Positions 1,461 to 6,873 are shown, counted from the stretch's first letter. The stretch: DNA of 6,874 nt from a virus (IMGVR_UViG_2663763280_000005:1-6874); one strand, 5' to 3'. Made by a program: numbers and translations. Notes: a model not told the origin generated them from the letters alone.

Positions 1461-1573
1461 TCGTGGCGCTGGCAGGCCTGAATCACAAACTGGCAGGCCA
1501 CAATCTTTCCCCGCACGACATCACGGGCATACTGATTGGCAGCATTTACGTTGGGGTAAGATTTCCGGCTCAT
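1461..1573 (-). pseudogene. Phage terminase large subunit, N-terminal fragment only (~37 codons)
   Basis: ATG at 1573..1571 overlaps the terS stop as ATGA. Translation [37 protein letters not shown] resembles the conserved TerL N-terminus (A.QYA.DV..G.I.AC..V..ACQRHL.DL). Similarity is lost after about codon 37 and the frame stops at codon 55. Confidence 0.4.
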
Positions 1574-2064
1574 GATTCGATGATTTTCAGAAACGGGTTA
1601 GTGGCTTTCTTCTGCCCCGCCAGGCCTATCAGACGCTGGCGGCTGCTGGGGTCGAGTCCGAGCATTGCCCCCGTGCTGCTCATCTCGGACTCCTGTTCTT
1701 TCTTGGCGGTCAGCTCCGGGTTTTTGACCCTGCCGCCCATTGCGCCGGTGATGGTGTTGCCCTGGCTGGCAATATTTTTCACGGCACGTCGCCAGAACTC
1801 ATAGGCCACGCACCACCGCTCAAGTACCGCCAGGTCAGTCACGCACAGCAGGCCCTGACCGCAGAGTTCTTTGGTTGTCAGTTGCCACATGATCGTGGCG
1901 AGAGGGAGATCTTCTTCTGCGAACCACTCCGGTGGCTCAACACCTTTGATGGGCGTAAAAACAGGTTCATCTTTATTCAGGGCTCGCTTGCCGGGGTTTC
2001 CGGCCAGCGCCTTGCGCGCCGTTGGCTTGGGGCGACGCCCGGAACGCCCCGCCGTTCCAGCCAT
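1570..2064 (-). CDS. Phage terminase small subunit (P27 family)
   Basis: Translation [36 protein letters not shown]... is typical of the P27-family TerS N-terminus. AGGAG lies 8 nt upstream of the ATG at 2064. The upstream GTG at 2073 lacks an RBS. Confidence 0.85.
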
Positions 2065-2114
2065 ATGCGGCACTCCTGGTTAAATTTCATTTTTCGCGGG
2101 TATAAAAAAACGAT

Positions 2115-2163
2115 GGGGCGGGCAGTCCGGAAGACGTCAGGTCACAGGGATTTGACCCGCCCC
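2115..2163. repeat. GC-rich inverted-repeat element in the HNH-terS intergenic region; candidate cos (cohesive-end) site
   Basis: ggggcggg (2115-2122) pairs with cccgcccc (2156-2163). Inside are the palindrome gacgtc (2133-2138) and the pair ggtca (2140-2144) / tgacc (2153-2157). In HK97-like phages cos lies between the HNH gene and terS. Confidence 0.3.
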
Positions 2164-2189
2164 TCCCCTCAGACAGTTGAGAATTATTA

Positions 2190-2540
2190 TCACTTCAGCC
2201 GTTCACGGGCCGTCTTCGCCTTATGACACGGCCAGCACAGACTCTGCAGATTACAGTCGGCATCAGTGCCGCCATGCGCTTTAGGGATGATGTGGTCAAC
2301 GGCTTTCGCCTCACGCACCACACCGGCACGCAGACATAACTGACACAGGCCTTTGTCACGCTTCAGGACACGCGCGCGGATACTGTCCCACTTCGAACCG
2401 TAGCCGCGCTGATGACGGGATTGTCTAGGTTTGTATTGCTTCCAGCCTTCGCTTTTGTGGCTTTCGCAGTAGCCTGACGGGTCAGTCGTGGTATGGCGGC
2501 AACCGCGAACACGGCAGGCTTTTGGGATTCGTGGCGGCAT
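2190..2540 (-). CDS. Phage HNH endonuclease (packaging-associated)
   Basis: N-terminal Cys-rich zinc ribbon (CRVRGCRH...YCESH) and HNH core (VDHIIPKAHGGTDADCNLQSLCWPCHKAK). Start assigned to the ATG at 2540 (MPPRIPK), because the longer ORF to 2591 would run through the terminator hairpin. Confidence 0.85.
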   Translation of the reverse strand: MPPRIPKACRVRGCRHTTTDPSGYCESHKSEGWKQYKPRQSRHQRGYGSKWDSIRARVLKRDKGLCQLCLRAGVVREAKAVDHIIPKAHGGTDADCNLQSLCWPCHKAKTARERLK

Positions 2541-2600: not shown

Positions 2601-2625
2601 TAATGATTTGCATAAATTTGTTGTT

Positions 2626-2928
2626 TCAGTCTAGCTTTATAAGTTTTACGGGTTTCTCGCCTGCTTCTACACACCAGTTGTTGTACTCATGTACAGCTCG
2701 CATCAGCTCACCATCATAGTGACCAACCTTCTCTACAAGGGATGTAAGCGATTGGGGGTTGAATTCAACAATTTCTGGTGGGATGAGGTTTACATTCCCT
2801 TTCTGATGAAGGGCATAGACAGCAGTACGTAAATCACCAATAGCTTTCATTCGTTCAGCATGAAGATCTTTGATCTTTTCATTAAGGATTTTGCAGCGAC
2901 CTATTGCTTCATAATTCAGTTCAGACAT
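2626..2928 (-). CDS. Hypothetical protein, 100 aa (moron operon gene C), no recognised family
   Basis: ATG at 2928 preceded by AGGAGG with a 5-nt spacer. AT-rich codon usage matches genes A and B. Translation MSELNYEAIGRCKILNEKIKDLHAERMKAIGDL... is a soluble, helix-prone sequence. Confidence 0.6.
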   Translation of the reverse strand: MSELNYEAIGRCKILNEKIKDLHAERMKAIGDLRTAVYALHQKGNVNLIPPEIVEFNPQSLTSLVEKVGHYDGELMRAVHEYNNWCVEAGEKPVKLIKLD

Positions 2929-2973
2929 TCTGCCCTCCTATTAAAATTCGTTATCTTTAGAGATAACTCTATA

Positions 2974-3360
2974 TTAAGAATGATTTTCTTTATCCTTAAA
3001 ATAATACCCAATTATAAATCCTAATGAAGTACCAAGGGCAGTAATCATTATTGACAATACCTTTTCCAGCTCGAGTGGCTTTAAATATTGAACGTAATCA
3101 TCAACACCTTTGCTCTTTAACTCTAAAGCCCAATTCACAACAGAATTATTATACCAAAGAACAAAAAGACAGCTAAAAATAAGAAGGCAAAAAAAGAACC
3201 AGAGAAACGTAATAGTTAAGGCGCTTCGTGTTTTACCATCAGTATGCTTAGAGTTAACAGCATTTTCCTCTGCTTTTCCAGCTGACTCTTCAATTTTTTT
3301 ATTTTCGATCCTGGCTACTTTTAATCTATCAAGGATGCTTCCAACATCTTCAATCGACAT
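2974..3360 (-). CDS. Hypothetical small membrane protein, 128 aa, two predicted TM helices (moron operon gene B)
   Basis: ATG at 3360 preceded by GGGAGGG 7 nt upstream. It overlaps the gene A stop by 11 nt. Hydrophobic stretches are ALTITFLWFFFCLLIFSCLFVLWY and VLSIMITALGTSLGFIIGYYF. The ORF-track start (TTG at 3378) is less likely. Confidence 0.6.
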   Translation of the reverse strand: MSIEDVGSILDRLKVARIENKKIEESAGKAEENAVNSKHTDGKTRSALTITFLWFFFCLLIFSCLFVLWYNNSVVNWALELKSKGVDDYVQYLKPLELEKVLSIMITALGTSLGFIIGYYFKDKENHS

Positions 3361-3661
3361 TTGAATTCCCTCCCGCAATTTTAGATAAGGAGTTCATAGC
3401 CTCAACATAGTCTGAACTTAAAGACTCATTATATTTTTCAATACTCGAAATTCCATTTTTCACAACTGGGCTAATTTTTATGTAGAGAGCAACCTGTCCT
3501 TTTTCAAACTCAGAGAGATTATCACCAGAGTTTTTGCGGATATCCTCAATTGAGTTCAATAGCTCTGTAATAAGAACCATGTGAGCATCAGCCATCGCAG
3601 CAGATGCTGCTCTGAACTCCGCAATCTTTTCAATAGCTTGTTTGATTTTTATGTTTGACAT
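3350..3661 (-). CDS. Hypothetical protein, 103 aa (moron operon gene A), no recognised family
   Basis: ATG at 3661 preceded by GGAGA 6 nt upstream. Translation MSNIKIKQAIEKIAEFRAASAAMADAHMVLITELLNSIEDIRKNSG... is soluble and helix-prone. It is the first gene downstream of an AT-rich non-coding leader. Confidence 0.6.
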   Translation of the reverse strand: MSNIKIKQAIEKIAEFRAASAAMADAHMVLITELLNSIEDIRKNSGDNLSEFEKGQVALYIKISPVVKNGISSIEKYNESLSSDYVEAMNSLSKIAGGNSNVD

Positions 3662-3922
3662 ATTATCTCCATCATATAATGTTCATATTCTCTCACTTAT
3701 CATCAAAAATGACAAGCTAAGGGAACCACTTAATTTATATGTGGAAAGAATGATTAAATTTTTCAATCTTAATATATACATCACATCAATTATTAAAAGT
3801 AACAAAACACTTGTCTACTTATAACTTTATTGTTTTTCATATTTAGGTAAGCATGAGCAATAATTATATCGTATTCTGTGTGGTATATTATATTCATCTA
3901 CTAACAAGAAAAATATACCACT
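3662..3922 (-). promoter_or_regulatory. AT-rich non-coding leader; probable promoter/operator region for the three-gene operon
   Basis: About 260 nt with no convincing ORF and several TATA-like hexamers on the minus strand. Contains a 9-bp perfect inverted repeat, gtggtatat (3880-3888) / atataccac (3913-3921). I could not pin down a single -35/-10 pair. Confidence 0.3.
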
Positions 3923-5684: not shown

Positions 5685-5800
5685 AAGCTGTGTGGCGAAG
5701 TAACCACTCTTAACAGATTATGATAGTTTTTGCGTACGCGTTAGTAATTTATTATGCTCTTTACAATTGTTAGCTTAACCGCATGGAATTGACCAAAAAA

Positions 5801-6720
5801 ATGAGCAAAGTAAGCATACGCCACGTAATCGTTCATGAGCTCTTAAAAGAATCTAATAAAGACTTCGATCACTCCAAACCATACAATCTTCGTGATACAG
5901 AACTAGATAAAACAAATGATATAGTAAAAAAATTAGTAGACGGTGTTATTGATTTGTATGGTTCAAAAGGGAACTCAGCGCATTATGGTGTTTTTATTAA
6001 AAATAAAACAAAGCAAGGCCCTATACCAGAACTATTTCATAAATACTCTTTAGTTCAACAATCTGTTTCAAGTGATTTCATTGAATTATCGAAGGAAGTT
6101 ATGAAACAAATGTATAAATCTGCTCAAGAGCAGATTTGGGCTTCTGGAGGATATGTTGTTTTTACTGATTATATTTTATCTGGTTTCCGTTATCTATTGG
6201 TTACAATGATCAAAAAAACTAATGGCGTAACTATTAGTGAAAATTTAGAGCCAGAGGAAATGATTCACTTAGAACTTGGTAATATTAACCAAGCAGCAAA
6301 AATAAATTTCAGATATTATGAAGAATACCAAAAAGCAGATGACTTAAAAAAAACAGACTTAAGTTATCTAAGCTTTATAAGCAAAACTACGGGACAGTCA
6401 GCGGCAGCATATTTTATAGCAGCATTAGGATGTGACAAGGGGATTGCTTCAGCAGGTGCAACCCGTAAGTTACCAGATGAAATAAGGCGTTTCTTTAAGA
6501 AAGAACCTCTTTTAAAAAATCAAGCAGAGTCATTTAGAAATGATGTTATCAAATACTTAGAAAAGCAATTTGACAACGAGCACTCTGCAAGGCTTTCTGA
6601 TATCGAATCGCTTGCTTCAGGCCATATGTCCGATTTAAAAGAGGAAGAAAAAACAGAACTTGTTGATAAATTAATGAAACACCTCAATAGTGAGGAAGTC
6701 AGAATCCCATCAGAGTTCGT
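5801..6720 (+). CDS. NA37/NdpA (YejK) family nucleoid-associated protein, divergent low-GC paralog; 3' end uncertain
   Basis: From the ATG at 5801 the translation MSKVSIRHVIVHELLKE...ASGGYVVFTDYILSGFRYLLVTMIKK...YLSFISKTTGQSAAAYFIAALG aligns by eye with E. coli YejK/NdpA (MSLDINQIALHQLIKRDE...[25 protein letters not shown]...[22 protein letters not shown]). The true C-terminus is obscured, because the open frame runs through n 6723 into unrelated sequence. Confidence 0.6.
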
Positions 6721-6723
6721 AAN

Positions 6724-6873
6724 AGTAAATTGCCCTGCGACGGGTCAAAAGCATTCAGCCCCCAAATGCGTAAGTCTGGCCTGTTCCGCACTCAACTACG
6801 GGCGATTTTGCGCGCTGCCAGTTTTGGCAACGCCCAGTTGATGATCCCGATGGTTCACAGCCTCGATCAGATC
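6724..6873 (+). CDS. PEP-utilising enzyme (PTS enzyme I family) internal fragment
   Basis: Translation in the frame of the codon at 6781 gives ...[32 protein letters not shown], which resembles PtsI ...[30 protein letters not shown]. It is a family member, not PtsI itself. It runs off the window end. Confidence 0.5.

Follow-up and report, generated by a model that had tools for sequence, protein, structure and literature searches.

The window, i.e., the whole stretch of 6,874 nucleotides of viral DNA analyzed here (IMGVR_UViG_2663763280_000005), contains an HNH endonuclease gene at 2190..2540 (minus strand) and a terS gene at 1570..2064 (minus strand). The HNH gene encodes 116 amino acids plus a stop codon, and its product (Pfam HNH, E 2.7e-14) carries a zinc ribbon (CxxxxC...CxxH) at its N-terminus, in addition to an HNH domain with [CxxC]2. 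It is 92% identical to SfV orf53 and gives a full-length match with the structure of the HNH enzyme of Geobacillus virus E2 (5H0M; E 6.6e-12), the N-terminal zinc ribbon being present in both the E2 enzyme and the window protein. TerS (164 amino acids; P27 family; Pfam Terminase_4, E 1e-20) is 98% identical to SfV orf1. Homology with SfV orf1 places the start of terS at the ATG at 2064, and not at the GTG at 2073, and a Shine-Dalgarno sequence, AGGAG, is found ahead of the gene at 2077-2073 on the minus strand. The earlier note had described a 116-nt spacer between the HNH gene and terS. The spacer does adjoin both genes, which are minus-strand genes, but since terS starts at 2064 the gap measures 125 nt (2065-2189).

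The first 37 codons of terL follow at 1464..1573 on the minus strand. All residues of this remnant (37/37) are identical to those of SfV TerL, a protein of 577 amino acids, and the homology stops abruptly at ~1464, the position at which prophage homology in E. coli genomes begins and homology to E. coli lptF/lptG stops. SfV TerL is homologous to HK97 gp2 (26% over 522 amino acids, E 1.5e-30), and the window-type and HK97 HNH proteins are homologous as well. The site considered below is non-coding, and has the HNH endonuclease gene on one side, and terS followed by terL on the other. An identical spacer is present in E. coli GE3 inside an intact module with the order HNH-cos-terS-terL-portal-HK97-family protease-capsid.

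Beyond the terL remnant, the window appears to be a composite: positions 457-1464 are 100% identical to the 3' end of E. coli lptF and the 5' part of lptG, after which the sequence continues with terL codon 37; positions 439-457 contain scattered Ns, and positions 1-438 hold an MFS-transporter-like ORF. None of the complete E. coli genomes holds at least 80% of the window, and GTDB representative genomes lack the 40-mer that spans position 1464. Strain GE3 has both the lptFG segment and the cos spacer in identical form, with ~920 kb between them. The junction at 1464 reflects either a deletion particular to the strain or a chimeric assembly.

On the other side of the HNH gene, an AT-rich insert (2620-3900; 27-37% GC vs ~50-59% in the flanking phage DNA) separates it from the Rz lysis gene. 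The insert carries minus-strand ORFs at 2626-2928, 2974-3378 and 3350-3661, none of which has a significant Pfam match and one of which seems to span the membrane, and it looks like a moron, i.e., an extra gene cassette of the prophage; the same interval is occupied by other, smaller genes in SfV and E. coli GE3. A terminator-like canonical hairpin with a T-run, located at 2582-2601 on the minus strand and immediately upstream of the HNH start, probably ends the transcript of the insert. This hairpin gives a sub-threshold Rfam match to the 3' end of the sRNA STnc100, with 20.4 bits vs a gathering score of 47. Beside the lysis cassette, an AT-rich gene at 5783-6841 (+ strand; 31-35% GC) encodes a 37-kD nucleoid-associated protein (Pfam NA37, E 5e-38); its 3' end has an ambiguous base, and the frame apparently runs into unrelated sequence.

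The spacer contains an 8-bp perfect inverted repeat with + strand arms GGGGCGGG (2115-2122) and CCCGCCCC (2156-2163) and 33 nt between the arms, as well as the inner palindromic elements GACGTC (2133-2138), GGTCA (2140-2144) and TGACC (2153-2157). These are the 8-bp GC repeat and the enclosed gacgtc and ggtca/tgacc elements to which the earlier note had drawn attention, and all of them are present. When the spacer was shuffled 5000 times in a dinucleotide-preserving manner, 7.9% of the shuffles contained a perfect inverted repeat with arms of 8 bp or more and a loop no longer than 60 nt; among 113 real tiles of 116 nt taken from the window, 7 did so. Compared with shuffles, the fold of the spacer displays no excess stability (RNA z = -0.78, DNA z = -1.56). 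The inverted repeat is not beyond chance expectation, and the finding of a cos site is therefore justified by homology and not by the repeat alone.

The comparison with phage records provides this homology. The HNH-terS region matches SfV, SfI, SfII and SfIV at 97-98% identity, together with several other enterobacterial phages; ST64B and the Shigella phages have linear records that start or finish within the spacer. The virion DNA ends of SfI have been sequenced directly, and exactly 10 nt, 5'-TGCCCGCCCC-3', are missing relative to the prophage (PMC3636060). On the basis of these ends SfI packaging is of the cos type, like that of SfV, in contrast to the headful phages Sf6 and SfX (PMC3636060), and the cos site is stated to be identical in SfI, SfII, SfIV and SfV (PMC3851460). 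In the window, the 10-mer identical to the gap between the SfI virion ends is located at 2115..2124 on the minus strand, where it forms the cohesive end (the equivalent of cosN) and equals the reverse complement of the proximal repeat arm plus 2 nt. The last bases of the SfI record are TGCCCGCCCC, and the record restarts at the base equivalent to 2114, which puts the top-strand cut between 2115 and 2114 on the minus strand. GGAC at 2125..2128 (minus strand) directly precedes the cohesive end on its 5' side, and the predicted + strand nick, CA|GT, falls between 2124 and 2125. We infer that the SfI-type overhang is 3'-protruding, as in HK97, since run-off sequencing gave a gap, while 5' overhangs would give an overlap.

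Records of relatives agree with this register. The annotated 'cos-site' feature of phiP27 (AJ298298), which lies on CGCCCGCCCC, aligns in register with the window 10-mer, and the records of SfI, HK97 and Edwardsiella EPP-1 all end at -1/+1, a top-strand position common to the three, with the EPP-1 ends assigned by PhageTerm (PMC11043334). The record of Proteus Pm34 ends at -11/-10, i.e., at the other nick, and of two IMG/VR contigs one (L176) stops at -11/-10 and one (L170) is one base short. The SfV (NC_003444; L001/L002) and SfIV records begin 7 nt upstream of the mapped 10-mer, at TCCGGAC|TGCCCGCCCC; with this offset, the ends of these two records do not correspond to the real virion termini, and record ends are not always true virion ends.

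One reading of the repeat is that it is a chance feature of an intergenic region carrying the terS ribosome-binding site or promoter, with packaging initiated elsewhere, e.g., at a headful pac site inside terS. The repeat alone would be compatible with it, being within expectation in the shuffles. However, SfI has defined virion ends and has been contrasted with headful Sf6 and SfX (PMC3636060), a cos is annotated in phiP27 at the homologous site, several record ends match the predicted nicks, and non-coding blocks in the region are conserved above their surroundings across genera and phyla, which together leave this reading with virtually no probability. The 10-mer, the phiP27 feature, the record ends and the gene homology all support the cos interpretation, and positions 2078-2168 on the minus strand very probably represent, judged by sequence comparison, the cos site of a temperate phage of the SfV/SfI/phiP27 type with an HK97-like head and packaging module, cut with a 10-nt stagger and preserved here as a terL-truncated relic. 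The candidate cos site of the earlier note is thereby borne out, as the SfI-mapped 10-mer, the phiP27 feature and the record ends of the relatives coincide. This holds also for the comparison with related virion and genome ends that it had suggested, in which SfI, HK97, EPP-1 and Pm34 end at homologous nicks. Termini of the pac type, or a lack of conservation among relatives sharing terS, would have spoken against its proposal; the relatives are cos-type, and all those that share terS have kept the region.

Alignment in the register of the cut (window, SfI, SfV, phiP27, Klebsiella phi6.3, EPP-1, Pm34 and HK97) reveals three conserved blocks with variable sequence between them: an upstream G-box at 2168-2146, the cut region GGAC|TGCCCGCCCC| at 2128-2115, and a downstream block composed of a T-run at 2110-2104 and ACCCGCGAAAAATGAAATTTAACC at 2101-2078. 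These non-coding blocks are better conserved than their surroundings, across genera and phyla. The G-box reads GGGGAGGGGCGGG-TCAAATC-CCT (2146..2168, minus strand) and contains the distal repeat arm (2156-2163). It is followed by a variable spacer (2129..2145, minus strand), which holds the inner palindromes and connects to the cut region. The length of this spacer is constant, while its sequence is unrelated in phiP27, Klebsiella phi6.3 and HK97, and the 17-22 nt between G-box and cut region are variable even where TerS is 99-100% identical. Downstream of the cut, the T7 run (2104..2110, minus strand; +5 to +11) precedes the predicted TerS binding site, i.e., the equivalent of cosB, formed by ACCCGCGAAAAATGAAATTTAACC (2078..2101, minus strand; +14 to +37). 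The latter is nearly invariant in 41 distinct close-relative spacers (one A for C, window 2079), and the block is conserved in Klebsiella, EPP-1 and phiP27, all of which have a P27-family TerS. With a Pm34-type or other TerS the downstream block is replaced by other boxes, and the G-box is constant throughout. From 2131 up to and including the terS start, the window matches SfV and SfIV with 100% identity; the tail of the G-box reads TCAAATCCCT in the window vs TCAAATCTCT in SfV and SfI, a single C/T difference.

The earlier note had regarded the repeat as the recognition and cleavage element. The spacer does hold the cos site, but the functional unit is not the inverted repeat as such: its two arms belong to different elements, one being the cohesive end and the other a part of the upstream box. 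That the repeat is functional as such, a hairpin, cruciform or symmetric binding being required for recognition or cleavage of cos, is highly improbable. Such a role would be in keeping with the perfect arms (8/8) in the window, the Shigella phages and phiP27, both of which fall within conserved blocks, and with the recurrence of partial complementarity between box and C-rich end in Pm34 (7 bp, computed) and Gamma (7 bp, read from the sequences); both elements are GC-rich runs, however, so that short complementarity is expected. Across 29 diverse cos regions no compensatory changes between the arms were found; the arms vary independently, with no double changes. At loci L010, L016, L042 and L050, GGGGGAGG faces an unchanged CCCGCCCC, leaving 6/8 pairs, where L016 and L050 carry the same spacers as L010 and L042. 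In-register pairing drops to 3/8 in HK97, 5/8 in EPP-1 and 1/8 in the loci with G-rich cohesive ends, and the folding energy cannot be told apart from that of the shuffles. The inner GGTCA/TGACC pairing is broken in close relatives, in which TGTGACC is changed to TGCAGCC, TGCGGCC or TGTGGCC. Moreover, cutting is off-center relative to the inverted repeat, with the nicks falling asymmetrically inside one arm. The site requires neither a hairpin nor a cruciform; in the SfV/P27 subtype, the C-rich cohesive end and the G-rich box are complementary by coincidence, and this gives rise to the repeat.

A second structural role would be that the repeat and the T-run form a Rho-independent terminator, or another RNA structure, that ends the lysis/HNH transcript. 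On the transcribed (minus) strand, T7 does indeed come 4 nt after the stem GGGGCGGG...CCCGCCCC, and the predicted RNA fold closes the stem. The geometry is nevertheless poor, with a loop of 33 nt (vs 3-8 nt), the 4-nt gap before T7 and an RNA z of -0.78, and a terminator scan did not report the spacer site, yet did report the canonical one at 2601-2582. No Rfam family and no tRNA-like element matches in the spacer. The T7 run is kept in TerS-sharing relatives in which the inverted repeat or stem is missing (Klebsiella phi6.3, EPP-1 and phiP27), and it is therefore not a terminator tail. Finally, late transcription in lambdoid phages must pass through cos into terS and terL, which also speaks against termination at this point. 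We consider the terminator reading extremely unlikely, and the reading as a cos site of the SfV/P27 type is retained in what follows.

The G-box is unique in the window and had 0 matches in 200 shuffles. Counting downstream from the T of TCAAATC (2155), which sets the register, the C of GGAC is reached after 31 nt and the top-strand cut after 41 nt. The box is found at the same spacing in SfI, phiP27, Klebsiella phi6.3, Pm34 and HK97; EPP-1 has one base fewer in the box and keeps AAATC in register, and D3, Gamma and E2 are ~1 nt from that spacing. A pattern search of IMG/VR with the G-box returned at least 120 contigs with 121 sites, and an HNH gene is immediately upstream at 114 of the 121 sites among the matches listed (29-100% identity). 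The cohesive-end sequences of these loci are highly diverse, and at least three TerS types are represented. Measured from the G-box, AC-N-G clusters at offsets of 29-32 in 26 of 32 dereplicated loci. One contig (L123, IMGVR_UViG_2711768073_000020) has two G-box matches on the same strand, at 3492-3509 and 6363-6380, i.e., 2.87 kb apart, perhaps through duplication of a cos region or a satellite-like insertion.

Since the G-box was itself the search pattern through which most of these loci were obtained, phages chosen beforehand were also examined; HK97, D3, Gamma and E2 were picked without reference to the G-box. The loci with HK97-type terS all have the G-run plus ATCAAATC or a one-base variant thereof, the corresponding boxes are GGGGCGGGTCAAAAC in Pseudomonas D3, GGGGCGGGTCGAAAA in Bacillus Gamma and GGGGCGGTCTGGAAAG in Geobacillus E2, and in each case a (G)GAC|CG-type junction is found ~31 nt past the box. 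The box and the AC|CG junction are common to phages of Gram-positive and Gram-negative hosts, as observed for Gamma (L298/L301), D3 (L300/L303) and E2 (L299). In Gamma and E2 the stop codon of the HNH gene, TAG, is embedded in the box (GGGTAGGGGCGG), and the Gamma record carries the 9-nt end CGCCGCCCC at both termini. G-box modules are thus seen in Enterobacteria phages (SfV, P27, HK97), Pseudomonas D3, Bacillus Gamma and Geobacillus E2, whatever the TerS type.

An IHF site in TCAAATC was considered and set aside, as the match to the consensus is poor by eye; the occurrence of the box in Bacillus phages likewise makes a host IHF site unlikely. A literature search with the sequence string of the G-box returned only unrelated primer matches, and two packaging reviews from 2026 make no mention of such an element in HK97. 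We tentatively propose that a G-box of the form GGGGNGGG-TC[A/G]AA... placed ~31 nt before an AC|YG nick is a deeply conserved and apparently undescribed sub-site of cos, with a cosQ-like role in which it would serve for pausing or docking and would position the HNH nickase for cutting one strand, TerL cutting the other; we regard this proposal as a serious possibility that falls somewhat short of being probable. Whereas the element type as such, i.e., the cos of SfV/P27-type phages, is already known and common, the architecture of G-box and AC|YG may be the sole part that is new.

The following mechanism is suggested for an intact phage. The terminase (TerS and TerL), together with the adjacent HNH protein, would cut concatemeric DNA at this site, with nicks staggered by 10 nt at 2115/2114 on the minus strand and at 2124/2125 on the + strand. 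The resulting ends would bear the 10-nt single strand TGCCCGCCCC, presumably 3'-protruding as in HK97, and packaging would then start from the terS side. The G-box would serve as a cosQ-like termination or positioning signal for the TerL/HNH nuclease, and the T-run, ACCCGCG and the A/T tract (2110-2078) would, by analogy with HK97, constitute the binding site of the TerS ring.

With respect to the division of labor between the nucleases, the HNH protein would make the + strand nick, CA|GT, and TerL the other. In HK97, the overhangs are 10 nt long and 3', and the HNH protein gp74 stimulates cos cleavage by TerL (PMC9410871, PMC11331095). Xu and Gupta found CG|GT to be the site nicked by the zinc-ribbon HNH enzymes that are encoded next to cos in Gamma and E2 (PMC3592412); on the opposite strand this corresponds to AC^CG, i.e., to the recessed-strand nick of these cos sites. 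The + strand nick at CA|GT is proposed for the HNH protein because the window protein resembles the E2 enzyme and the CG|GT specificity equals the recessed nick. On the other hand, according to a recent review the effect of HK97 gp74 in vitro is limited to enhancing cleavage by TerL (PMC13595911), which argues against an obligatory HNH nick.

The assignment of the TerS site is guided by HK97, where a 15-bp sequence, CTAACCCGATTTTTT (+15 to +29), is bound by the TerS ring (PMC11331095), which reads one C:G pair beside an A-tract (PMC9410871, PMC11331095). The ACCCG motif of the window is 4 nt nearer the cut than that of HK97. P27-family TerS proteins display no BLASTP similarity to HK97 gp1, a profile comparison of the two is borderline (probability 50%, E 1.6e-4), and no relative of P27-family TerS was found in the PDB by sequence. 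As P27 TerS and HK97 gp1 are barely related, the analogy for the TerS site is an indirect one.

Because only the first 37 of 577 terL codons are left, this prophage is unable to cleave the cos that it carries, and the site is a relic. Intact packaging genes are not present in cis, which affects the function of the site here and not its sequence identity. With complete identity to SfV from 2131 to the terS start, and only the one C/T in the box tail upstream, the site should be recognized in trans, and a related helper phage should, as far as the sequence tells, be able to recognize and cleave it. The cos spacer is present, unannotated, in 1162 of 5426 complete E. coli genomes, and 15 of 1312 matching places in the E. 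coli collection are on plasmids. The plasmid copies may be phage-plasmids, or cos plasmids mobilizable by SfV-type phages.

For the window, an unannotated 90-bp element can hereby be labelled as a phage cos site, the prophage copy being a relic. The 10-mer and its flanking boxes provide exact coordinates for the genome ends of SfV/P27-type prophages, and the cos element could serve in cosmids or packageable plasmids for phages of this type. The model of G-box and AC|YG, if true, would answer which protein makes which cut in HNH-dependent cos cleavage, and the comparison yields as a by-product a directly testable model of strand assignment that extends from Enterobacteria to Bacillus.

The cos of lambda is tripartite (cited in PMC11331095), with an upstream termination element (cosQ), staggered nicks (cosN), and downstream binding of the small terminase near its gene (cosB). 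Lambda has a 12-nt 5' overhang, the Nu1/gpA terminase, an IHF site and no HNH protein. The layout of lambda cos works alike; the window site is, however, not a member of the same family and there is no sequence similarity between them. A lambda-type cos was rejected on the grounds that TerS belongs to the Terminase_4/P27 family and the SfV-type TerL is HK97 gp2-like, neither being Nu1/gpA; a symmetric 12-nt 5' overhang of the lambda type was rejected as well, the end in the relatives being 10 nt long and TGCCC|GCCCC asymmetric.

The closest counterparts are the cos sites of SfI, SfII, SfIV and SfV, which share with the window the same 10-nt end, TGCCCGCCCC, and the same gene order, i.e., HNH, cos, terS and terL. 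Compared with the Shigella phages, terL in the window stops after codon 37, beside E. coli lptFG sequence, and there are a few substitutions right after the HNH stop codon. In the Stx2e phage phiP27 (AJ298298, misc_feature 21806-21815) the G-box is identical, the cut has the same spacing and is preceded by GGAC, and the cohesive end CGCCCGCCCC is one base off; ACCCGCGAAATTAAAAATTT forms the downstream box, and a P27-family TerS is encoded. It differs from the window in an unrelated 22-nt spacer and in an end that begins with C, which results in a canonical AC|CG nick, whereas the window has AC|TG.

The cos of HK97 is likewise located between an HNH gene (gp74) and terS and has a 10-nt end. It shares with the window the G-run plus ATCAAATC at 41 nt before the cut, GAC|CG at the recessed nick, and ACCCG with an A/T tract downstream, at the TerS binding region (PMC11331095). 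The two differ in that the HK97 cohesive end is CGCCGCCAAA, without the inverted repeat, and in that ACCCG is at +18 in HK97 and at +14 in the window; furthermore, the HK97 HNH protein lacks the N-terminal zinc ribbon (Group 3, PMC3592412), and its gene is 319 nt from the end.

The resemblance extends to Bacillus phage Gamma, which has the G-box GGGGCGGGTCGAAAA, GTAC|CG at the same 31-nt distance, the C-rich end CGCCGCCCC, an HNH gene (N.phiGamma nickase) directly upstream and a P27-family TerS (TIGR01558), and differs from the window in its 9-nt end, its Gram-positive host and the overlap of the HNH stop codon with the G-box. On our own reading, which is not a claim of the original report, the CG|GT site measured for the Gamma nickase appears to coincide with the recessed cos nick.
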